This document shows, in pieces, positions 1-15,103 of a stretch of 15,908 bases of DNA. Source of the stretch: a virus; UHGV virus genome UHGV-0361135; one strand, 5' to 3'. A program made the position numbers and the translations under genes. Numbering within the stretch: the first letter of the stretch is position 1; each line of letters begins with the position of its first letter. Under the pieces are notes generated by a model. The model had not been told where the DNA came from. It made no database searches and was given only the letters and a program-made list of their open reading frames with translations.

Positions 1-1
1 T

Positions 2-583
2 CACCTTATCAGAACCGCTTATGAAATTAACGAAGAGCCGACCGCCTATGGCGATCACGGTATTCGTATTTATGGCATCTGGTCACCCATTTCAGAGGGC
101 AAGATCTGCACTCATGCAGTGAAGTGGAAAATGGTTCGTAAGGCCGTTGACGTTCAGGAGGCGGTAGCCGACCAGGGCGCTTGCGCCCCTTGGACTCGTG
201 GCAATAACTGTCCCCTTGCTGAAAATTTGAACCAACAGGAGAAAGATAAATCAGCTGATGGGGGCACCAGAACGGACATTACCCGCATGGATGACAAGCA
301 GTTGCACGATTACCTGCACAGTATGAGCAAAAAAGAGCGCCGGGAACTGGCAGCAAGGTTACGCCTGGTTAAACCGAAACGGCGTAAAGACTACAAACAG
401 CGAATTACAGACCATCAGCGACTGCAGCTCGTCTATGAGCTGAAGTCCAGAGGATTTGATGGTAGCGAGAAAGAGGTCGATTTACTCCTTCGCGGCGGCA
501 GTATTCCGTCAGGAGCAGGCCTGCGTATCTTCTATCGGAACCAGCGTCTGCAGGAGGATGATAAATGGCGGAACCTGTATTAA
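2..583 (+). CDS. 3' end of a long ORF that enters the window already open (5' partial); probably the C-terminus of the P2-family replication initiation protein (gpA-like), judged by synteny
   Basis: Frame 2 is open from the first base of the window to TAA at 581-583. The position immediately upstream of the tum/DinI-like module and the cargo island matches the P2/186 gene order. I do not recognise the protein sequence itself. Confidence 0.5.
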
Positions 584-675
584 TTACGCTGGTTAACAAT
601 TCGTGCTCTTAATAATACCAGGCATATCAGGCTGATGAGCGTAAAAAAACGTTTTACATCAGTAAGATTATTATA

Positions 676-695
676 TACTGTAAATATAAACAGTG
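676..695. promoter_or_regulatory. LexA operator (SOS box) overlapping a putative sigma70 promoter for the downstream small-ORF/DinI-like operon
   Basis: TACTGTAAATATAAACAGTG has CTGT at 678-681, an 8-nt AT-rich spacer and ACAG at 690-693, matching the gammaproteobacterial LexA consensus CTGT-N8-ACAG. A TTTACA -35-like hexamer lies at 653-658 and TATACT at 674-679. The first downstream start codon is 42 nt away. Confidence 0.75.
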
Positions 696-736
696 GTTAT
701 GTGTACAGTATTGCTTGTGGTGTCATAGGAGGAAAA

Positions 737-925
737 ATGCAGGACTATTTTTTGGAGTCTTTGAAGCTCCAGCGCATTGATTTTTTTCTTAAGCTTGTAG
801 CGGCTAGTGAGTGTAGTGATGAAGAGAAGGGGCTGGCCCTGCAGTGGGTTTCTGAACTGACAGATGAACTCATGGCAAAAATCAGAACCCACGAATACAA
901 CCGCTCAATGGATGTCATCAGTTGA
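737..925 (+). CDS. Small hypothetical protein (62 aa), first gene of the SOS-regulated operon; possible antirepressor-like partner of the DinI-like protein
   Basis: ATG at 737 is preceded by a strong RBS, AGGAGG at 727-732. The longer ORF in the track (from 635) lacks an RBS and would overlap the LexA box. No recognisable homology. Confidence 0.6.
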   Translation: MQDYFLESLKLQRIDFFLKLVAASECSDEEKGLALQWVSELTDELMAKIRTHEYNRSMDVIS

Positions 926-935
926 GGTGACTTTT

Positions 936-1169
936 ATGCGCATTGAAATAATGATCGATAAAGAGCAGAAAATTAGCCAGTCTACCCTGGACGCCCTTGA
1001 ATCCGAGCTTTACCGCAATCTGCGCCCCCTGTATCCCAAAGCGGTAATTCGTATCCGTAAAGGTAGCTCTAATGGTGTGGAACTGACCGGACTGCAACTG
1101 GACGAAGAAAGAAAACAAGTGATGAAAATTATGCAGAAGGTGTGGGAAGACGACAGCTGGCTGCATTAA
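936..1169 (+). CDS. DinI-family protein (77 aa), resembling the DinI-like C-terminal domain of phage 186 Tum antirepressor
   Basis: MRIEIMIDK...LDALESEL...SSNGVELTG...KQVMKIMQKVWEDDSWL aligns well with E. coli DinI as I recall it (MRIEVTIAK...IDALAGEL...ILQETWESADDWF). A GAGGTGA RBS precedes the ATG at 936. Confidence 0.88.
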   Translation: MRIEIMIDKEQKISQSTLDALESELYRNLRPLYPKAVIRIRKGSSNGVELTGLQLDEERKQVMKIMQKVWEDDSWLH

Positions 1170-1170
1170 G

Positions 1171-1213
1171 AAACGTTGCTGGCGTCTGAACTTGCTTCTG
1201 ACGTCAGCAACGT
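1171..1213 (+). repeat. Inverted repeat (15-bp stem, 13-nt loop) immediately 3' of the DinI-like gene; possible terminator or boundary element
   Basis: aacgttgctggcgtc (1171-1185) pairs with gacgtcagcaacgtt (1199-1213) with one G-U position. There is no U-tract after it, so it is not a canonical intrinsic terminator. Confidence 0.5.
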
Positions 1214-1435
1214 TGAACAACTAGTTTAGTGGGGCATTAGTCATGGGGTAAAATACAGTAACCATTATTTTCACTTCCGCTCAGATTTAACCGAACGTTA
1301 GTTTTGCTACGTATGATGGGCTGCAAATTACCTTTTGGGATTTGTGATAGATACGAAAATCCTATTAGATGCTTGTTAGACCGGAAGCGCCACTTCGAAC
1401 GAAAAGTAATGGCCACTTATGCCGGTTTAAAAGCC

Positions 1436-1966
1436 TTAACCTTGTATAGTTATTTGAATATTTTCTTCATTAACACCAAAGTATAGGGCTAGCCCTGCTT
1501 TTGCCTCCTGAAGTGTTAACGGCTTAACTACATTTTCTTCTTCTTCTTCGTACTCATCACCCGCTTGATCGACAATCGAATTAGTCGGGGTTAATTTGGG
1601 AAGAGCTTTAAATTCCAACTTGTCAGCCTCAATGCCAATGTCTTTGAGGTTGCGATAAGAAACGGGATTCCGATTGCCATCCCATTGTCCTGGGATGTCA
1701 ATTTCAGCATAAGAATTGATGTTTATGATCCAGCGTTTAGGGTTTTCTGGAGCCCTGCTTACTCCCGAGATTCGACCGATCATAAAAGCATGATGATGTT
1801 TTGCTTCTTGTGATCCCCAGTCCTTTCTCGAATTTTGTACACAAACTAAATATTCGTGCTTAGCTGCATGGCTGGCGTCAAGTCTCCATGCTTGGCTTCC
1901 CCCTGTGTTCAAAATCTCTGTTAAACCACGAGCAGTAAGTACAGTAATACAGTTGGTAGTAGCCAT
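1436..1966 (-). CDS. Hypothetical 176-aa protein in AT-rich cargo island 1; function unknown, candidate accessory or anti-phage gene
   Basis: Intact 531-nt ORF on the minus strand with a purine-rich stretch (GACGGGG) upstream of the ATG at 1966. Composition differs from the flanking phage genes. It has an acidic patch (DEYEEEEEN) and a His-rich segment (KHHHAF). I recognise no family. Confidence 0.7.
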   Translation of the reverse strand: MATTNCITVLTARGLTEILNTGGSQAWRLDASHAAKHEYLVCVQNSRKDWGSQEAKHHHAFMIGRISGVSRAPENPKRWIININSYAEIDIPGQWDGNRNPVSYRNLKDIGIEADKLEFKALPKLTPTNSIVDQAGDEYEEEEENVVKPLTLQEAKAGLALYFGVNEENIQITIQG

Positions 1967-2283
1967 TGAATTGTGACCCCGTCTTTTTTAGAGAAATACT
2001 GTTGATGAATGTAGTTTACGTATTTTTTTATGGGGTAGTCAAGTTAGTATTATGCTCATTATTGGCTGTTTGTTGAGTGTTGTGAGTTGGTACTTTGTGT
2101 AGTATCTCTTGATTTATGAGGATTAAATCTAAGTTATGACAAAGGGAGGCAGGGGGAACGCGCAGCGCAAGGTGGACAGGAGGCCATAAGGACTCACTTG
2201 AAGTAAGAAAAGATCGATAAAGCAACAATGCATGTCTATGCCGCATGAATTCGCATGATCGTTTGAGGATCGTTTTAGTTGAG

Positions 2284-2311
2284 GCCCGCCAGGAATGGCG
2301 GGCTTTTGTTT
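2284..2311 (+). terminator. Rho-independent terminator-like hairpin on the plus strand with no annotated upstream plus-strand gene
   Basis: GCCCGCC (2284-2290), loop AGGAAT, GGCGGGC (2297-2303), followed by TTTTGTTT (2304-2311). Confidence 0.55.
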
Positions 2312-2481
2312 ATGTCATGCAAGTGCATGAAAACCACTACATAAAGCGGGCAGGCGTGGCGGGGATACGAGCGCGCGCTCATGGTTGAATTAATGAAATT
2401 ATGGTGTTAAATAGGCTAGCTTTTTAAGTCGTGAATATTCAATTTTTCAACTCATTTTTTTCATAGGGAGGAGTAATTGAC

Positions 2482-3180
2482 ATGGTTATGTTAGTGGATG
2501 ACTGTCCACGATGTGGATCACAAAAAATAGCGTTTGATGTTAATGGGCTGAATTGCACTAGGGTTTACAATGCATTGGGCGGGGGTAAAACATACGAGTA
2601 CGAGGTCTATTGTGTTTGCCGAGAGTGTCATAAAACGACAATGTTTCTTTGCAGACCTTTAACGAAAAATAAAACTTTAGATGGCTATAATTGGGAAAGT
2701 GGAATATTCGGCTTAAAGGAAGTTGCAGAGGTTGTTAGGCCTATATCACCGGCAGACTTAGCAGTAGAGGAGCCACCAGAGTTCTTACCTGAGCATATCA
2801 ATAGTGCATATGAGGAAGGGGCGAAATGTTTGGCTATAGGTTGTTATAATGCAGCAGCAACCATGTTTAGGCTTTGCCTTGATTATGCCACAAAAGGACT
2901 TCTTCCTGATGGGGAGCAAGGGCCTGCGCAAAAAATAAGGAGAAGCCTAGGGTTAAGAATGGAGTGGTTATTTGATAATCATCTACTGCCTGAAGCTTTA
3001 AGGGAACTAGCTGAATGCGTTAAAGATGACGGAAATGATGGAGCGCATGAAGGTATTTTGGATAAAGCTGCTGCTGAGGATCTTGAAGATTTTACCTATC
3101 TTTTTTTAGAACGGCTTTACACTGAACCTCAACGCCTTATCGAAGCCAAGACAAGGCGTGAACAAAGAAGAAACAAATAA
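2482..3180 (+). CDS. Zinc-ribbon plus DUF4145-like domain protein (232 aa); candidate single-gene defence or abortive-infection protein in cargo island 1
   Basis: GGGAGGAG RBS at 2466-2473, 8 nt before the ATG at 2482. The N-terminus has CxxC...CxxC (CPRCG...CRECH). The C-terminal region (AYEEGAKCLAIGCYNAAATMFRLCLDYATK...LRELAECVKDDGNDGAHEG) resembles the DUF4145 helical domain pattern as I recall it. Lower GC than the adjacent portal gene. Confidence 0.75.
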   Translation: MVMLVDDCPRCGSQKIAFDVNGLNCTRVYNALGGGKTYEYEVYCVCRECHKTTMFLCRPLTKNKTLDGYNWESGIFGLKEVAEVVRPISPADLAVEEPPEFLPEHINSAYEEGAKCLAIGCYNAAATMFRLCLDYATKGLLPDGEQGPAQKIRRSLGLRMEWLFDNHLLPEALRELAECVKDDGNDGAHEGILDKAAAEDLEDFTYLFLERLYTEPQRLIEAKTRREQRRNK

Positions 3181-3188
3181 GTTCGGAA

Positions 3189-4226
3189 TTATTCTTCTGA
3201 AAGAATATAGGGCGTAAATTTAATCACTTCTTCGCCCAGCCAGTCGTTCAGCTCTTGTAGCCTTTTTTGCAAGGGCGTTAATTCATTACGTACAAATACG
3301 CGACTGGCCTTCTCCACATCCCCAAATCCCCCAACATTATTAGGCATTATCCCCATCATTTGTGGCGGTACACGGTGCGCAGCCATCATGTCATCGCGGC
3401 TGACATTTTTGATATTCAGAAACTCATCCTTCGCCGCGACTTCTGACAGAGGAATGATCTGAAGGCCGTCCTTTTTGCCGTTCGGCGAGTACATAAACAG
3501 GTTACGGAAATTGCCAGGTCCTTTGGCGCTTTTCATCGCATTACGGAGGTTGTTTACATCCTCCTGGTTCTGCGCGGCGTCGGTCATGTACATGATGAAG
3601 CCTGCGTGGCTGCCGTTAATGTAATACTTGCGGCGGAACAGCGTGGCGGACTCGTTGAGTAGGGCTGACGGAATGGCAGAAAGATAACCGGGCAGGCCGT
3701 AGATCTCCTGGTTGATATCCGGTTCCATCAGGTGAAAAATGCTGCCTTTCGTGAACTGATACGGTTGCGTGGTCATGCCGTATTGCACAAACCAGTAGGT
3801 ATCCAGGTCTAATCCGCGTCGGGTGTATTTTGCCAGGGCAGGTTCAAGGGCGATAACTTCACCGAAGCGGTTCGTGCGTTTCTCCAGGTAGGCGTTACCA
3901 AAAACCAGATAGTCCTGCACAAAACGCGAAAAAGCCTGCTGGCTGAGCAGCGGGTGAGGGATGTAGGTGCTGGTCAGAATGTTGCACTTTACTGCAATCG
4001 GGGAACTATGATGCACGGCAGCGCGGAAGGTGCGCGCCAGTCCGTCAAAGCTGACGGGCGGCTCATACCAGCGGTCCATCTGTACGCATTCCACATAATC
4101 CAGCAGTTCTCGGCGGTCCAGAACAGGAACGGGATCGCCGAAGCTGAATGCTTCGGCTGTAGTTTGACTTTTAAGCTGGATCTGTTTCGTCGCCGCAGCG
4201 CGGTTCTTCTTACTCTTTCCCATCAA
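3189..4226 (-). CDS. Q: Capsid portal protein (P2 gpQ homolog)
   Basis: 345-aa ORF with a P2 Q-like N-terminus (MMGKSKKNRAAATKQ...), located immediately downstream of P on the minus strand with a 4-nt ATGA start/stop overlap. Canonical P2 Q-P arrangement. Confidence 0.92.
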   Translation of the reverse strand: MMGKSKKNRAAATKQIQLKSQTTAEAFSFGDPVPVLDRRELLDYVECVQMDRWYEPPVSFDGLARTFRAAVHHSSPIAVKCNILTSTYIPHPLLSQQAFSRFVQDYLVFGNAYLEKRTNRFGEVIALEPALAKYTRRGLDLDTYWFVQYGMTTQPYQFTKGSIFHLMEPDINQEIYGLPGYLSAIPSALLNESATLFRRKYYINGSHAGFIMYMTDAAQNQEDVNNLRNAMKSAKGPGNFRNLFMYSPNGKKDGLQIIPLSEVAAKDEFLNIKNVSRDDMMAAHRVPPQMMGIMPNNVGGFGDVEKASRVFVRNELTPLQKRLQELNDWLGEEVIKFTPYILSEE

Positions 4227-5989
4227 AAAATCTCCACAATATTGCTGGTATTGGCGGATTCGCCCTGCAGCGGTTCGTTAAACAGTGCGTGCATTGTTGC
4301 CCAGGCCAGATCGGCATGGCTGGCTTCTTCGCTGCGGCTGGCTTCATAGGTTGGGCGGTTGCCGCTGGCGGTGGTGGCGCGACGGATTGCCATAAATGAC
4401 TGCGCTATGTCGGTGTGTCCGGCGTCAAACTCCAGACGACGGTGACTGATAATGTCGTAGGCCTTGAGTACCAGGGCGTTTTTAACGTTGGGGTTGTAGA
4501 CAAACTCCCGGACGGCTGGAAAAAACGCTTTCACGTTCTCGTAAACCCCGTGGCCGACACCTGTCGAGTCGATGCCGATGTAGGTCACGTTGTACTGTTC
4601 GGTCAGTTTTTTGATGGCGTCAGCCTGGGCGCGAAAGTCCATTCCGCGCCACTGGTGACGCTCAAGAATGCGGAACTTGCCGCCCGGCACGGCTGGCGGT
4701 GCCACCACCACGCATCCGGCGCTGTCGCCATTCTGCGTACCTTTCGCCGGGTCATAACCGATCCATACTTCGCACCAGCCAAACGGGCGCAGGGCCAGTG
4801 CATGAAAGTCAGTCCAGACTTCCCAGCTGTCTACCATGCACGCCTGCAGCTCGCTGAGCGGGAACACGGACGCGAGATCGTCCACGAACTCACACATCAG
4901 CAGGTTCTGGTATTCGTCCGGGCTGTACTCCATGCGCAACTGGTCGAGATCGAACAGGTTACATCCGCCGCGCACAGCATCTTCCACGGTGACTATCTGG
5001 CGGTATTGCCCGTCTGCGCACAGCAGGCCGGGGGCCAGATTGCTGTGGGACAGGTCGATGTCCACCTTATCGGCTTTGTTGCGCCCACGGTTGAACAGCG
5101 CACCGGACCAGAACGGATAAGCACTGTGTGTCAGGCTGGATGGCGTGGAAAAATAGGTTTGTCGCCATTTTTTGTGAATAGCCATACCGGAAGCCACTTT
5201 GCGCAGCTCCTGGAATTTCGGTATCCAGAAATATTCATCCAGATACAGGTTGCCGTGGTAACTCTGGGCCGTGCGGGCATTGGTGCCGAGGAAGTAAAGC
5301 GTGGCCCCGTTGGGAAGCACCATCGGATCGCCTTTCAGCTCCACCTCCACTTCTTTGGCGAAGTCGATGATGTACTGTTTAAAGACGTGGGCCTGTGCCT
5401 TACTGGCAGAAAGGAAAATCTGGTTACGTCCGGTAAGCAGGGCGTCAATCAGGGCTTCACGGGCAAAATAGAAGGTCGCGCCGATCTGGCGTGACTTCAG
5501 CAGGTTGCGGATGCGGTTGGTTTTTCCGGCTTCCCACCAGTGGCGCTGGTAGTTGAACATGGAGGAATGGAAAATTTCTTCCAGCTTCTCAATCTGTTCA
5601 TCGGTGAAAACATTCTTTTCAGGCTGACGGCGTGGGCCTTTGTTGCGGTTGGCGACGTTAGGGTTTAAGTCAGCTTCGTTGCCGCCATTGTTAAACTTGC
5701 CGATCCGCGCGTGGCGCTCCGACTGGCGCGCCAGCAGGTCAATCTCTTTGAAATCTTTCCCTTCTTTGTGCTCCTTCATGATGAGCTGGCAGTAGCGTGC
5801 GGCGGTAGTGAGCTGCATCTGATCCAGCGGCCCATAGTCACCCCACTTGTCGCGTTTTTTCCAGCTGTGAACGGTTGCAACTTTCTCGCCCAGCATTTCA
5901 GCAATGCGGGCTACGCGGTATCCCTGAAAGTACAGCAGCATGGCCTGCCGACGGGGATCGAGATCTGCGGGTGTCAGTGTGGTGTTCAT
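4223..5989 (-). CDS. P: Terminase large (ATPase) subunit (P2 gpP homolog)
   Basis: 588-aa ORF, matching the size and position of P2 gpP. It is divergent from O across a 142-bp late-promoter region. Confidence 0.92.
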   Translation of the reverse strand: MNTTLTPADLDPRRQAMLLYFQGYRVARIAEMLGEKVATVHSWKKRDKWGDYGPLDQMQLTTAARYCQLIMKEHKEGKDFKEIDLLARQSERHARIGKFNNGGNEADLNPNVANRNKGPRRQPEKNVFTDEQIEKLEEIFHSSMFNYQRHWWEAGKTNRIRNLLKSRQIGATFYFAREALIDALLTGRNQIFLSASKAQAHVFKQYIIDFAKEVEVELKGDPMVLPNGATLYFLGTNARTAQSYHGNLYLDEYFWIPKFQELRKVASGMAIHKKWRQTYFSTPSSLTHSAYPFWSGALFNRGRNKADKVDIDLSHSNLAPGLLCADGQYRQIVTVEDAVRGGCNLFDLDQLRMEYSPDEYQNLLMCEFVDDLASVFPLSELQACMVDSWEVWTDFHALALRPFGWCEVWIGYDPAKGTQNGDSAGCVVVAPPAVPGGKFRILERHQWRGMDFRAQADAIKKLTEQYNVTYIGIDSTGVGHGVYENVKAFFPAVREFVYNPNVKNALVLKAYDIISHRRLEFDAGHTDIAQSFMAIRRATTASGNRPTYEASRSEEASHADLAWATMHALFNEPLQGESANTSNIVEIF

Positions 5990-6035
5990 GGCACAAACCT
6001 ACAACCTTGAATGAAGGCTTTCCCCGCCTGCGGTT

Positions 6036-6053
6036 TGTGTGGTTGTCGGTACA
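6036..6053. promoter_or_regulatory. TGT-N12-ACA dyad, candidate Ogr/B-family late-activator binding site of the P/O divergent late promoter region
   Basis: TGT at 6036-6038, 12-nt spacer, ACA at 6051-6053. The centre is about 88 bp upstream of the O start codon, consistent with the P2 late-promoter rule of a dyad centred near -55. Confidence 0.55.
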
Positions 6054-6131
6054 AATACCGCGCATTGTTTCACTGCCCCCATCACCGCAACCATAAGGCT
6101 CCAGTAAGTTTTTTCTAACGGAGCACGGCTC

Positions 6132-6965
6132 ATGACAGTGAAAGCAAAGCGTTTTCGCATCGGGGTGGAAGGCGCCACCACCGACGGACGCGAAATCCAG
6201 CGTGAATGGCTGGAACAGATGGCAGCCAGCTACAACCCGGCGGTGTATACCGCGCTGATTAACCTTGAGCACATCAAGTCTTATCTGCCGGACAGCACCT
6301 TTAACCGCTACGGTAAGGTGACGGCGCTGTTTGCTGAAGAAATCACGGAAGGTCCGCTGGCAGGCAAGATGGCGCTGTATGCCGACGTTGAGCCAACGGA
6401 GTCCCTGGTGGAACTGGTGAAAAAAGGCCAGAAATTATTCACCTCTATGGAAGTCAGCCCGAAGTTTGCTGATACGGGCAAAGCCTACCTGGTCGGCCTG
6501 GCTGCCACTGATGACCCTGCCAGTCTGGGCACTGAAATGCTGACATTCAGCGCCAGTGCAGCCCATAACCCGCTGGCAAACCGCAAGCAGAATCCCGCCA
6601 ATCTCTTTACAGCCGCAGAGGAAACGGTGATCGAACTGGAAGAAATCCAGGAGGACAAGCCGTCCCTGTTTGCCCGTGTCACGGCGCTGTTCACCAAAAA
6701 AGAGCAGTCCGATGACGCCCGGTTCTCTGATGTGCATAAGGCCGTGGAACTGGTCGCCACTGAGCAGCAGAACCTGAGTGCGCGCACCGAAAAATCCCTG
6801 TCTGAGCAGGAAGAGCGCCTGTCTGAGCTGGAGACAGCCCTGCAGGCACAGCAGACCGCCTTTAACGAACTGGTGGACAAGCTGAGCCAAGAAGACAGCC
6901 GCCAGGACTACCGCCAGCGTGCAACAGGCGGTAACGCCCCCGCTGACACTCTGACCAATTGCTGA
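6132..6965 (+). CDS. O: Capsid scaffolding protein (P2 gpO homolog)
   Basis: 277 aa; the N-terminus (...RFRIGVEGATTDGREIQ...INLEH...RYGKV) matches P2 gpO (...FRIGVEGDTCDGR...INLEH...RYGDV). GGAG RBS upstream. Confidence 0.93.
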   Translation: MTVKAKRFRIGVEGATTDGREIQREWLEQMAASYNPAVYTALINLEHIKSYLPDSTFNRYGKVTALFAEEITEGPLAGKMALYADVEPTESLVELVKKGQKLFTSMEVSPKFADTGKAYLVGLAATDDPASLGTEMLTFSASAAHNPLANRKQNPANLFTAAEETVIELEEIQEDKPSLFARVTALFTKKEQSDDARFSDVHKAVELVATEQQNLSARTEKSLSEQEERLSELETALQAQQTAFNELVDKLSQEDSRQDYRQRATGGNAPADTLTNC

Positions 6966-10170: not shown

Positions 10171-10548
10171 ATGAAAAAGAAATTAATCAGCGGGCTGTTT
10201 CTGATGTTATGGATGGCGCTGTTAATTGCAGCAATGGTGTATCCGCAGGGGATTTTTCCGGTACTGGCAGCGTCCGGCGTTTGGGTAGCCTGTTTACTGA
10301 CATGGGCGGTAATTCCGGTAGCACTGGCTGCGTTAATTAAGAATGGCTCGCTCTGGCAGGAGTTGAGGGCATCTTTGCTGAAGACCATTACCCGAAAAGA
10401 AAACGTATTTATCAGCTGGGTGATGCGATTGCTGATTGTCGTAAGTCTCGCCTGGACGGGGTGGGCTATTACCCTGGTCTTTTATCTACTGACCGTTATT
10501 GCCTTCTGGATCACCCGTAATCAGATGGCGCAACAGGTAGCAGCATGA
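10171..10548 (+). CDS. lysA: Lysis regulatory membrane protein (P2 LysA-like)
   Basis: Start chosen at ATG 10171 (MKKKLISG...), just after the K stop, with a GGGAG RBS. The protein is multi-spanning hydrophobic. The track's upstream extension from 10099 overlaps K and is unlikely. Confidence 0.8.
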   Translation: MKKKLISGLFLMLWMALLIAAMVYPQGIFPVLAASGVWVACLLTWAVIPVALAALIKNGSLWQELRASLLKTITRKENVFISWVMRLLIVVSLAWTGWAITLVFYLLTVIAFWITRNQMAQQVAA

Positions 10549-11500: not shown

Positions 11501-11939
11501 ATTGCAGAAGGTGGACGACTGGCTGAGTGCCTTGCTGGCGAATCTGGAGCCAGCCGCAAGAAGCCGTATGATGCGCCAACTGGCGCAGGAACTTCGCCGG
11601 ACACAGCAGCAGAATATCAGGATGCAGCGCAACCCTGACGGCAGCAGCTATGAACCGCGACGGGTAACAGCACGCAGTAAAAAAGGCCGCATTAAACGTC
11701 AGATGTTTGCGAAGCTGCGCACCACAAAATACCTGAAAACTGCCGCCAGCGCCGATTCTGCCAGCGTGCAGTTTGAAGGCAAGGTGCAGCGCATTGCCCG
11801 CGTTCATCACTACGGCCTGCGTGATCGCGTCAGTCGCAAAGGACCTGAGGTCCGTTACGCAGAGCGTAAGCTATTGGGTATCCACGATAAAGAATATTAT
11901 CAAATCAAGGATACCCTATTTGAATGGTTATCTAAATAA
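11493..11939 (+). CDS. S: Tail completion protein (P2 gpS homolog); the 3' end is AT-rich and may have been remodelled by the adjacent insertion
   Basis: GTG start at 11493 overlapping the R stop. 148 aa in the expected position after R. Codon composition of the last ~20 codons shifts to AT-rich. Confidence 0.85.
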   Translation: MAELQKVDDWLSALLANLEPAARSRMMRQLAQELRRTQQQNIRMQRNPDGSSYEPRRVTARSKKGRIKRQMFAKLRTTKYLKTAASADSASVQFEGKVQRIARVHHYGLRDRVSRKGPEVRYAERKLLGIHDKEYYQIKDTLFEWLSK

Positions 11940-11942
11940 TAT

Positions 11943-11963
11943 AAAAATACATCTGTATTTTTT
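11943..11963. terminator. Weak AT-rich hairpin flanked by an A-run and a T-run between the convergent genes S and the TOPRIM-like gene; possible bidirectional terminator
   Basis: aaaaatacatctgtattttttc: ATACA/TGTAT-type dyad with an A-tract 5' and a T-tract 3'. It sits in the 25-bp gap between the two convergent stop codons. Confidence 0.35.
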
Positions 11964-11964
11964 C

Positions 11965-12816
11965 TTATTTCATTTCGTGTGGCATATTTATGGCTTTAAT
12001 TTTTTCGTGGTAATGATTAAACTCAATATGAGTATTGGTAAAATTGGATTCAAATGTATTCATTAAATTGGAATATAATGATTCATATGATAAGGATACT
12101 TTTTTTCCATTTTTTTCTGCAGTTGTGCTAATGTACCTATGTACTGCAGAAAAAAGAAAATGACCTCTAAGCCACTTTCTGTATTCTATCGATTTTGATT
12201 TGAAAGATGAATCGATGTTATCTGGTTCCACACCTAATTTTTCAATGATGGTGTTTTTGTAACTCGTGATTTTTTGCTCGCAAATTTCATTTGATTTTCT
12301 AGATTTCATGAAACGATCTGCACTGTCACCAATAACTGAAATGCCTTTTCTATAAATATGATTGTATATATCAAGTTTTATTAGGGGTTCCATTTTGGTA
12401 TAAAAGTCTTCTGTCCAAGAATCGACGTTGACATCGTTCATTATCTTTTGAGGTAATTTTCCGAGAGTTTTTATTGCCTTATATATGCCTGTTTTGTCAA
12501 TAAACGTGTTTTCGATGGAGTGCCCATAAGTTTTTACAATGCGACTATCAGCGTTTTCCTCATTTTCAAATGTAGTGAAGTCTGCATCACATGCAATTAT
12601 AATTTGAAGATCTTCATCAGTAACTCTATCAATATATTTTTTTAATTCTTCACAGCCGCCAACATCTTTGATTTCAACCTTTAATGAACTAGCTTTATTA
12701 AAGATGATTTCCCAAAAGCAAATATCATCTGGGCCTTCAACATAAACCATGGCTTCAGCTTGGTAAAATAAATTCATTACATTTTCTGCTTCGGCAGAAT
12801 AATGGAAATCATCCAT
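11965..12816 (-). CDS. OLD-family TOPRIM-like nuclease candidate (DUF4435-like; AriB-like or AbiLii-like), second gene of the island-2 defence operon
   Basis: Start chosen at ATG 12816 (MDDFHYS...), which has a GGAGA RBS 9 nt upstream and an 8-nt overlap with the upstream ATPase gene. The track start at 12900 has no RBS. The N-terminal VYVEGPDD (Glu at about residue 27) and the later IIACDADF (DxD) fit a TOPRIM catalytic E...DxD arrangement. Strongly AT-rich. Confidence 0.75.
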   Translation of the reverse strand: MDDFHYSAEAENVMNLFYQAEAMVYVEGPDDICFWEIIFNKASSLKVEIKDVGGCEELKKYIDRVTDEDLQIIIACDADFTTFENEENADSRIVKTYGHSIENTFIDKTGIYKAIKTLGKLPQKIMNDVNVDSWTEDFYTKMEPLIKLDIYNHIYRKGISVIGDSADRFMKSRKSNEICEQKITSYKNTIIEKLGVEPDNIDSSFKSKSIEYRKWLRGHFLFSAVHRYISTTAEKNGKKVSLSYESLYSNLMNTFESNFTNTHIEFNHYHEKIKAINMPHEMK

Positions 12817-14068
12817 GAACCAATTTCTCCATATCAAAGATTGCATTTCGATATTTAGAAGCCACTTCTGGTGAATGCGTAGCGGCGATAATTTGCGCAT
12901 TAGGATTAAGTTGTTTGATTGCAGGTATTATTTTTCGTTGCCATGCAATATGTAGCGATAATTCTGGTTCATCAGTAAGATAGATGAAAGGTTTGTTTTG
13001 CTGTAGCAAAGTTTCAATAAAAAGAATTAATAGCTGTTTTTCACCAGACGATAAATTACTATGGCTAATCGGCCCATGCTCGTTTTCTATTACTAGCTCA
13101 CCGGAGATAAAATTAAATTTTTTATCGGTTATGAACTCATGTAATGTTTCTAAAAATAGATTTATAGGAAGAAATATGTTTTTTATTTTCTCCTCGGATT
13201 TTAAAGACATCTTTATAATTCTTTGCGTCTTTCGTAATGCCTCAAATGATCTGTAATCTACATTTAAAATATTTCTGTTATTTTTTTCTGCAAGTCGTAA
13301 TTCTTCAAATGTTTTGGCAATAGATTCAACGTGAAAGTTAATCTTCTTTCTGACATCACTATCAAAAGCTCCAAGCTGAGAATATGCAGCTATTAAATTT
13401 CTACGTTCTTTTTCTTTATCAAAAGAAAAGTTAAATGTGTCATCGATACCATCTTCTTTACTATAAAGAATAGAAGCAAGAACCTCTTTCTGTAATATTG
13501 CAGAAACATCACGAGCTCTTTGTGATAAATAAAGTTGATATTTTGTTAGATTCTGCAATAATTGTTCTAATCGGTAATCAACAGGGTTGATTAATTTTGA
13601 GCCATATTTGTCTCTGATTTCAAAATCTTCACCGCTTCTAAGTCGGTAAACTGATAGAGAAGATAAAGCAACTAATTTATCTAACTCTAACTTAAGTTTT
13701 TCAACGTCTTCCTGATATTTTCTCCTCATATATATAGGTAGTCTACGATCTTCAAAGGATCTGATAATATATTTCTTTCTAGAAATTGTATATTCAAACG
13801 TAGGCAAAGCTTTAGTTATGTCAAATTTACTCACAACTTTTATTGTTTTAGTTTTGCTTCCTTCTTTTATTTTTATTGTTACATTATCAAAACTATTCTC
13901 ATTTAGTGATTCGAGTTCTAATGCCAGAACTGAGTGAAGAATATTCATAAAGGTTGTTTTACCGGTCCCATTTCGACCAATAATAATATTTACATCTTCA
14001 TTAAATGAACATGATGCATTTAGTCTTCCCCAAAAACCTTCAATCTTGACACTAGATAATCTAAACAT
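12809..14068 (-). CDS. ABC/AAA_21-type ATPase (419 aa; AriA-like or AbiLi-like, OLD-family ATPase-like), first gene of the island-2 defence operon
   Basis: AAGGA RBS 5 nt before the ATG at 14068. Walker A GRNGTGKTT near the N-terminus, ABC signature-like LSSGEKQLL, Walker B IYLTDEPELSLH and H-loop AATHSP near the C-terminus. Strongly AT-rich relative to the flanking phage genes. Confidence 0.85.
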   Translation of the reverse strand: MFRLSSVKIEGFWGRLNASCSFNEDVNIIIGRNGTGKTTFMNILHSVLALELESLNENSFDNVTIKIKEGSKTKTIKVVSKFDITKALPTFEYTISRKKYIIRSFEDRRLPIYMRRKYQEDVEKLKLELDKLVALSSLSVYRLRSGEDFEIRDKYGSKLINPVDYRLEQLLQNLTKYQLYLSQRARDVSAILQKEVLASILYSKEDGIDDTFNFSFDKEKERRNLIAAYSQLGAFDSDVRKKINFHVESIAKTFEELRLAEKNNRNILNVDYRSFEALRKTQRIIKMSLKSEEKIKNIFLPINLFLETLHEFITDKKFNFISGELVIENEHGPISHSNLSSGEKQLLILFIETLLQQNKPFIYLTDEPELSLHIAWQRKIIPAIKQLNPNAQIIAATHSPEVASKYRNAIFDMEKLVHG

Positions 14069-14104
14069 AGGAATCCTTTATTTAGTCCATGAGTAAATGC
14101 ACTT

Positions 14105-14122
14105 TGTATCATAACTGGCACA
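14105..14122. promoter_or_regulatory. TGT-N12-ACA dyad in the AT-rich intergenic region upstream of V; candidate late-activator site (P_V-like), with spacing to the V start shorter than expected
   Basis: TGT at 14105-14107, 12-nt spacer atcataactggc, ACA at 14120-14122. The centre is only about 55 bp from the V ATG at 14169, so either the leader is very short or the site is fortuitous. Confidence 0.35.
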
Positions 14123-14168
14123 AAACTAAAGAGTTTTTTTATCAATCTTATCTCGGCATGATTAAATT

Positions 14169-14747
14169 ATGAACGCACAATTAACCGAAATCATGCGCCT
14201 TATCACCAACCTGATCCGCACTGGTGTAGTCACCGAAGTGGACCGGGAACACTGGCTTTGTCGGGTGAAAACGGGCGACCTTGAAACCAACTGGATTAAC
14301 TGGCTGACGCTGCGCGCGGGTAATGCCCGCACATGGTGGCGACCATCGGAAGGTGAGCAGGTGGTGCTGCTGAGTCTGGGCGGCAATCTGGAAACCGCCT
14401 TTGCGCTGCCCGCTGTCTATTCGAATCAGTTCGCACCACCGTCAGCGTCGGTGGACGCCTGTGTGACAGAACATCCTGACGGTGGCTGGTTTGAATACGA
14501 ACCCGCTACCGGGCGCTGGTATGTCAGGGGAATCAAATCCATGGTCATTGAAGCTGCCGACAACATCACCCTGAAAACCAGTGAGTTTGTACTGGAGGCT
14601 GACCGCACACGCATTAACAGCGAAGTAGTGATCAATGGTGGTGTTACCCAGGGCGGCGGTGCAATGAGTTCTAACGGAATTGTGGTTGATGCACATCAGC
14701 ATACTGGCGTCCTGAAAGGCGGCGACACAACCGGAGGCCCGGTATGA
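14169..14747 (+). CDS. V: Baseplate assembly / spike protein (P2 gpV homolog)
   Basis: 192 aa; MN....E..R.I.N.IRTG...E.D.....CRV.TG.....W..WLT.RAG..RTWW.PS.GEQV.....GG.L.TAF.LP..YS matches P2 gpV. Confidence 0.92.
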   Translation: MNAQLTEIMRLITNLIRTGVVTEVDREHWLCRVKTGDLETNWINWLTLRAGNARTWWRPSEGEQVVLLSLGGNLETAFALPAVYSNQFAPPSASVDACVTEHPDGGWFEYEPATGRWYVRGIKSMVIEAADNITLKTSEFVLEADRTRINSEVVINGGVTQGGGAMSSNGIVVDAHQHTGVLKGGDTTGGPV

Positions 14748-15103
14748 CGCTTTATAGCGGGATGAACAATACCAGCGGTAAAGCCATTACTGATATTGAC
14801 CATCTGCGCCAGTCGGTGCGGGACATTTTGCTGACGCCGCAGGGTAGCCGCATTGCCCGTCGGGAATATGGTTCCCTGCTGTCGGCACTGATAGACCAGC
14901 CACAAAATCCGGCATTACGCCTGCAGGTCATGTCGGCAGTGTATGTGGCGCTGAGTCGCTGGGAGCCACGGCTGACGCTGGATTCCATCACCATTAAAAG
15001 CAATTTTGACGGTTCAATGGTGGTGGGGCTGACCGGGCGGCGTAATAACGGTGTGCCTGTTTCCCTTTCCGTATCAACAGGAGCAGAGAATGGCAGTGAT
15101 TGA
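14744..15103 (+). CDS. W: Baseplate assembly protein (P2 gpW homolog, gp25-like)
   Basis: 119 aa, ATGA overlap with V, GGAGG RBS at 14733-14737. Conserved position between V and J. Confidence 0.9.
   Translation: MTLYSGMNNTSGKAITDIDHLRQSVRDILLTPQGSRIARREYGSLLSALIDQPQNPALRLQVMSAVYVALSRWEPRLTLDSITIKSNFDGSMVVGLTGRRNNGVPVSLSVSTGAENGSD

Follow-up and report, generated by a model that had tools for sequence, protein, structure and literature searches.

The closest described counterpart of the locus analysed here is the late promoter pV of bacteriophage P2, whose RefSeq record (NC_001895) annotates an 'activator binding site; activation of pV promoter' at 10239-10266 and a 'transcription start site for V operon' at 10308, the latter coinciding with the first base of the V coding sequence and lying 55.5 bp from the centre of the activator site. 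Because the annotated start falls on the first base of V, leaderless V is a documented state in P2, and PMC4633059 (citing Christie and Calendar 1985) names P2 as one of the few origins of leaderless genes known from E. coli. The motif TGT-N12-ACA is given as the consensus of the four P2 late promoters (PMC3931495, citing Christie and Calendar 1985; Julien and Calendar 1995). Hotspots for foreign genes have been described in P2 at A-Q (old/tin) and at Z/fun, with tail-gene hotspots mentioned in general terms, and the PARIS defence system has been described from P4 satellites. PARIS is an abortive-infection system, and the divergent gap between P and O is known to carry late promoters in P2-type phages. 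The Ogr-dependent late promoter pV of P2 was reportedly treated by Christie and Calendar in 1985, and its arrangement is said to have been known since then.

In this study, we analysed a 15,908-nt stretch of the virus genome UHGV-0361135 (hereafter the window), which by gene order and domains covers late genes of a prophage of the P2 family (Fels-2/186-like). Minus-strand Q and P are followed by plus-strand O, N, M, L, X, holin, lysozyme, lysA, lysB, R and S, and, beyond an AT-rich block, by plus-strand V, W and J (Table 1). Between 11950 and 14100, GC content is about 30%, down from about 55-60%, and the block carries two minus-strand genes, ariA and ariB, which are predicted by HMM matching alone to be a PARIS defence system: AriA matches AAA_21 (8.2e-23) and AAA_15 (1.6e-17) in Pfam and the AriA model of PADLOC (E=5.7e-40), and AriB matches DUF4435 (1.4e-25) in Pfam and the AriB model of PADLOC (E=2.8e-24). 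In the RefSeq annotation the two genes overlap by 8 nt. The longest ariB open reading frame would start at 12900, encode 311 aa and overlap ariA by 92 nt, and the RefSeq start at 12816, giving 283 aa, is the more plausible of the two.

The limits of the inserted DNA could be placed by comparison with insertion-free relatives. On the V side, BLAST similarity to these relatives begins at query position 100/101, that is, at the V ATG, and on the S side DNA similarity ends near 11867, within the 3' end of S, so that the whole pV sequence belongs to the cassette. The cassette is thereby composed of a variant S 3' end, an AT-only hairpin, minus-strand cargo and its own AT-rich pV. The re-coded, AT-rich C-terminus of S, KLLGIHDKEYYQIKDTLFEWLSK, which is a feature of the window and of related loci (L012-L064), is still recognisably homologous. 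The hairpin lies between the converging stop codons of S and ariB, folds more stably than shuffled sequences (z = -4.5 on the plus strand and -2.9 on the minus strand), and is possibly a weak two-way terminator. A scan of the window against Rfam gave no matches.

Table 1. Coordinates of observed and predicted features in the window
Feature	Position	Strand	Remarks
P-O late-activator dyad	6036-6053	.	Between divergent P and O; internal calibration of geometry
Cassette left end	11867-11939	plus	Last ~24 S codons re-coded AT-rich, DNA similarity lost
AT-only hairpin	11943-11962	.	8-bp stem, between converging S and ariB stop codons
ariB	11965-12816	minus	PARIS DUF4435/TOPRIM effector; RefSeq 283-aa start
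ariA	12809-14068	minus	PARIS ABC-type ATPase, 419 aa; AAA_15/AAA_21, PADLOC AriA
ariA-V intergenic region	14069-14168	.	100 bp, 30% GC; right end of AT-rich S-V hotspot cassette
ariA Shine-Dalgarno sequence	14074-14079	minus	AAAGGA; kept in five diverged PARIS cassettes
Alternative candidate ariA promoter	14092-14121	minus	-35 GTGCCA 14116-14121 inside dyad, -10 TTTACT 14092-14097
TGT-N12-ACA dyad	14105-14122	plus	TGTATCATAACTGGCACA; predicted Ogr/B-type activator site for pV
-10-like hexamer TATGAT	14108-14113	minus	Inside dyad
Best candidate ariA promoter	14145-14173	minus	-35 TTCATA 14168-14173, -10 TAAGAT 14145-14150; PWM 9.2
Predicted pV -10	14157-14162	plus	CATGAT; -12 to -7 from V ATG
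Predicted V-operon transcription start	14169	plus	A of V start codon, by P2 annotation
Gene V	14169-14747	plus	Baseplate spike; Phage_base_V + Apex domains
Gene W	14744-15103	plus	Next after V

A preliminary description of this DNA had pointed to a perfect TGT-N12-ACA dyad in the AT-rich gap between ariA and V, centred about 55 bp from the V start codon, and both the gap and the dyad are as it described them. With its flanks the dyad reads TTTGT-N12-ACAAA, and its centre at 14113.5 is separated by 55.5 bp from the first base of the V start codon and by 45.5 bp from that of the ariA start codon. Counted over the window, the motif occurs five times against 3.7 expected, and 62 of 200 shuffled sequences reach five; as this count is not significant, position-specific conservation was used as the test. 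Sixty-four V loci were fetched from different Enterobacterales species, with V and S located in each, and offsets from the V ATG were tabulated for 60 V loci, the window and phage records among them; the dyad begins at -64 in 40 of these, at -65 in nine, and at -63 and -66 in one each. Deduplication left 50 distinct 100-nt sequences upstream of V, comprising 18 empty S-V junctions and 32 junctions with cargo, and a perfect dyad starting at -66 to -63 was found in 47 of them (18/18 empty, 29/32 cargo-bearing), while shuffling of the 32 cargo-bearing sequences left on average 0.04 loci, and at most two, with a dyad at that offset. Outside the dyad and the -10 element, the cargo-bearing sequences share a median identity of 28%, which amounts to no detectable similarity, and since the offset is kept even among these otherwise unrelated sequences, the pattern argues for strong position-specific selection on the dyad that is tied to V. 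In the insertion-free phages Fels-2 and Klebsiella phage 4LV2017 the dyad begins at -64, the same offset as in the window. It had been suggested that the dyad might be fortuitous, namely a chance match in AT-rich foreign DNA with V transcribed from elsewhere, and the slight excess of motif matches in the window would be compatible with this; however, the retention of the offset far beyond the shuffled expectation, its identity in insertion-free relatives and the correspondence of the dyad to the annotated pV activator site of P2 leave such a coincidence a virtually negligible probability.

Sequence features downstream of the dyad are those of a promoter that would depend on an activator. In a dyad-anchored alignment of 31 distinct cargo-bearing sequences with perfect dyads, only TTGT, ACAA, ggcAt..T and ATGAA stand out, and among the 50 related sequences an A at -11 (46/50) and a T at -7 (45/50) keep a constant spacing to the dyad. 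Both belong to a -10 hexamer, as its two key positions; in the window this hexamer is predicted to be CATGAT. The corresponding -35 position reads TTTTTT (14134-14139) and offers no usable -35 element, and a promoter and terminator scan of 11850-14350 found no sigma-70 consensus promoter in the ariA-V gap on either strand. Having a -10 but lacking a -35 is what marks a promoter as activator-dependent, and such a promoter would have its start 7 nt past the -10, on the A of the V ATG. Moreover, the gene order of the V operon and the domains of S, V and W match those of P2, Fels-2 and 4LV2017, which puts the promoter in synteny with P2 pV. It is highly probable, as judged from these comparisons, that the dyad is the activator site of a P2-family pV, a promoter with only a -10 element, whose predicted start on the V ATG would yield a leaderless mRNA. 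A perfect 8-nt inverted repeat brackets the V start, with its left arm, GCATGATT (14156-14163), in the pV -10 region and its right arm, AATCATGC (14189-14196), in V codons 7-10; it was judged a chance occurrence, as about 0.1 such repeats are expected in the region and relatives lack the left arm.

The feature would thus be a diverged, geometrically exact copy of the already known pV promoter. Of the three alternatives in the preliminary description, a V promoter rebuilt by the insertion comes nearest to the evidence, insofar as the promoter sequence came with the cassette, but the native geometry is unchanged to the base, with the dyad at -64 and the -10 at -12 to -7. The same cargo type comes with the same pV variant, as in L014, L024 and L044.

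The start sites and activator sites of P2 and 186 used throughout were taken from RefSeq feature tables. The 15 nt preceding the V ATG of the window, CGGCATGATTAAATT, contain no Shine-Dalgarno sequence, and a Shine-Dalgarno-like 4-mer at -17 to -4 was found in none of the 48 relatives whose dyad lies near -64. The only loci with a dyad at -77, that is, 13 bp further upstream, are those of Scandinavium lactucae (L020) and Tatumella saanichensis (L032), and these alone have a Shine-Dalgarno-like 4-mer before V (AAAGAGGAACAG and AAAGAAGGGCTA). The occurrence of a Shine-Dalgarno sequence just in the loci with a dyad at -77 is the pattern that a transcription start kept at about 55 bp from the dyad centre in every locus would produce, and the two loci look like a leadered pV variant made by the 13-bp difference. 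The stretch concerned in these two loci is 3924-4003. Translation does start at the V ATG, given that codon 2 varies synonymously (AAC/AAT) among relatives. The remark of the preliminary description that a canonical -55 placement would leave almost no leader was accordingly a correct reading of the sequence, but it signals no anomaly, as V of P2 is itself leaderless by annotation.

An internal calibration of this geometry is provided by the gap between the divergent P and O genes (5978-6132), where two other TGT-N12-ACA matches of the window sit. The P-O dyad is centred at 6044.5, and from there the distance to the ATG is 55.5 bp for P and 87.5 bp for O. P, the terminase large subunit gene, has its ATG at 5989 with a -10-like TAGGTT at -12 to -7, and P of Fels-2 (L075 184-250) has the same dyad spacing with a -10-like TATGTT; from these sequences P also looks leaderless in this lineage. 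P2 and 186 annotate a start 22-23 nt upstream of P and orf12, respectively. The second match in the gap, at 5978-5995, extends over the start codon of P and is probably a chance occurrence.

The gene for the late activator falls outside the window. Of 5,426 complete E. coli genomes, 18 carry the segment 11940-14168 with an identity of at least 99.8%, and in E. coli XJW9B277 it resides in a complete 186-like prophage between rcdA and ybjL, which ends, after gene D, with a gene for a 72-aa Ogr/Delta zinc-finger protein (PF04606, E=5e-22). Among deposited phage records the closest, ON470620.1 (Escherichia phage vB_EcoM-813R9), is a prophage prediction that has host ybj genes on both sides and a truncated tail fibre gene H, and lacks the sheath, tube, tape-measure, D and ogr genes, with the PARIS and pV locus retained; it is a defective prophage remnant. 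As a truncated prophage without an activator gene it was dropped as a source of the activator, and XJW9B277 was taken instead. The window also differs from the otherwise matching XJW9B277 prophage upstream of Q, at the old/tin hotspot position (1-3188): XJW9B277 has a TIGR02391 protein there, and the window has a DinI-like gene (864-1169), minus-strand open reading frames at 1436-1966 and 2028-2246 with no family match, and a DUF4145 protein (2482-3180) with a weak PADLOC match to PD-T7-4 (E=1.2e-6). This content may represent a second defence cargo.

Conservation and geometry of the dyad are observed, as is an activator gene in a complete prophage with the same locus; from this we infer that the activator binds, where exactly transcription starts and that V is translated without a leader in the present phage. 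Late in lytic growth, a phage-encoded zinc-finger activator of the Ogr/B type would bind TGT-N12-ACA about 55 bp upstream of the start and recruit host RNA polymerase to pV, which has the -10 CATGAT and no -35. Transcription would then begin on the A of the V start codon, putatively giving a leaderless V-W-J... mRNA devoid of a Shine-Dalgarno sequence. The AT-rich, diverged copy of pV would travel with the PARIS cassette in the S-V hotspot, with selection having putatively kept both half-sites, the A at -11, the T at -7 and the spacing to the ATG, and nothing else.

Cargo in the S-V slot follows a common layout among the loci compared here. The main cargo open reading frames are on the minus strand in 31 of 33 cargo-bearing loci, P2 orf30 included; cargo GC content is 31-44% against 48-61% in V; and the first ATG of the V-proximal cargo gene is 49-103 bp from the V ATG in 26 of the 33 (83 bp in P2). 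S-V cargo is thus almost always AT-rich and divergent from V, so that the cargo promoter and pV have to share about 100 bp. Four other loci have diverged PARIS homologues in this slot, with DNA identities of 75% in E. coli GDSC2227PM and 67% in E. coli S1-type prophages, and AriA protein identities of 74% in [Erwinia] mediterraneensis and 64% in a Klebsiella MAG. The dyad lies at -63 to -65 in the GDSC2227PM, S1-type and [Erwinia] mediterraneensis PARIS loci, and no dyad was found within 90 bp of V in the Klebsiella MAG locus, where the match to V is partial.

It had also been proposed that the dyad influences the divergent defence promoter and thereby couples defence gene expression to the lytic programme. 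Such control of ariA is unsupported, since the same dyad occurs where no divergent gene exists at all. The most direct form of the proposal, in which the dyad would activate both divergent promoters so that the late activator induces PARIS, is not without precedent: in P2, a single activator site (3057-3087) serves pP and pO, whose starts at 3016 and 3127 lie about 55 bp on either side; the 186 record has one B-protein site for p12 and pV; and the P-O dyad of the window itself has a like layout. However, in the ariA-V gap the left-hand position at -55.5 bp, about 14058, falls some 10 nt inside ariA, upstream of the Walker A motif, and full-length AriA could not result from a start there; ariA, having a Shine-Dalgarno sequence, needs a leader; and the distance from the dyad centre to the cargo ATG varies from 27.5 bp in P2 orf30 to 44.5, 45.5, 47.5 and 52.5 bp in the PARIS variants, while the distance to V is fixed within +/-1.5 bp. 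We therefore regard activation of both promoters as very improbable.

With the bidirectional geometry failing and promoter overlap unavoidable, any coupling would more likely be negative. An activator bound to the dyad might interfere with a divergent ariA promoter through promoter occlusion or polymerase competition, so that PARIS transcription would fall as the late genes switch on, which would tie defence negatively to the lytic programme. From the ariA ATG to the dyad there are only 36 bp (14069-14104), not enough for a leader plus a promoter, hence the ariA promoter is bound to extend into the dyad, into the pV core or into both, and the recurrent layout with minus-strand, AT-rich cargo close to the V ATG would extend this situation to most cargo-bearing loci. 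All three candidate minus-strand elements also overlap the dyad or the pV core. The best candidate, whose TTCATA covers V codons 1-2, overlaps the pV core, is not conserved in the PARIS homologue locus L031 and is speculative as an ariA promoter, as are the alternative promoter with its -35 in the dyad and the -10-like TATGAT; the latter was dropped as evidence for occlusion, being partly dictated by the half-site consensus TGTAYCA. Against interference, no minus-strand promoter element is found at a fixed distance from the dyad: when 23 cargo-bearing loci were scanned with a PWM for cargo promoters on the minus strand, the best matches were scattered, with no common offset from the dyad, so that the ariA promoter is not located, and aligning five diverged PARIS cassettes for a conserved ariA promoter revealed none, conservation being limited to the dyad, the -10 of pV and the Shine-Dalgarno sequence and start codon of ariA. 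Besides, pV fully explains a dyad that also occurs without a divergent gene, and AriA and AriB made earlier would persist, leaving late shut-off with little obvious effect. Interference by way of overlapping ariA and pV promoters is thus possible on the basis of the layout, and its operation through the bound activator seems to us unlikely. An extension of this idea, in which the S-V hotspot acts as a promoter switch and binding of a late activator, be it from this phage, from a co-resident or superinfecting P2-like phage or, as Delta, from a P4 satellite, turns pV on and the defence cargo off, is in our view quite doubtful. If true, such a switch would mean programmed silencing of PARIS during the phage's own late phase.

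Reading the dyad as the activator site of pV clarifies what appeared to be an oddity, in that a late-activator dyad without room for a leader, placed beside a defence operon, would be a textbook pV in front of a leaderless V. The dyad should accordingly not be reported as an element of defence regulation. It appears that hotspot cassettes can fully re-code pV with a geometry exact to the base, and the collection of such cassettes amounts to a natural mutagenesis map of the promoter, in which TTGT, ACAA, the A at -11, the T at -7 and the distance to the ATG would be the positions that matter. PARIS variants recur in the S-V slot in E. coli, Erwinia and Klebsiella, and the cloning of S-V defence systems "with native promoter" necessarily brings along the late-activator site.

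Several known arrangements can be set beside the present one. Not every member of the family has a perfect dyad: the P2 site, at -65, is imperfect and reads either TGT-N11-ACA or TGT-N12-CAA, and orf32 of phage 186, the V homologue, has only a TTGT half-site where the dyad would be expected, with no ACA 12 bp away (L005 2160-2232). In the 186 record, no promoter is annotated before orf32, and p12, pV and the B-binding site are annotated elsewhere. Among divergent promoters, P2 pP/pO and 186 p12/pV share with the P-O gap of the window a TGT-N12-ACA between divergent genes; they differ from the ariA-V gap in that both of their starts are about 55 bp from the centre, whereas the left-hand one here would be inside ariA. 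Leaderless mRNAs such as those of lambda cI, P2 V and Tn1721 tetR resemble the predicted V message in having a 5' end at the A of AUG and no Shine-Dalgarno sequence, with the difference that leaderless translation of this V is predicted. The P2-like defence hotspots (old/tin, Z/fun and tail-gene) likewise hold AT-rich cargo between conserved late genes, but here the cargo sits between S and V, where P2 has orf30.

The 186/Fels-2-like phages with an empty S-V junction, Fels-2 and 4LV2017, have V proteins 87-96% identical to that of the window, with an identical dyad offset and an identical -10 position. Their S-V gap is 68 bp and GC-rich, with the dyad beginning 3 bp past the S stop codon, whereas in the window the entire promoter is AT-rich and DNA similarity stops at the V ATG. 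The likeness to P2 pV extends to the cargo as well. Both promoters immediately precede V, with which the V-W-J-I-H-G operon begins; both have a site about 55 bp from the start, a -10 without a -35, a start (predicted in the window) on the first base of V and no Shine-Dalgarno sequence; and in both an AT-rich minus-strand gene diverges from V, namely the non-essential orf30 in P2, across an 83-bp gap, and the two-gene PARIS here. Outside the functional positions the two sequences are unrelated.
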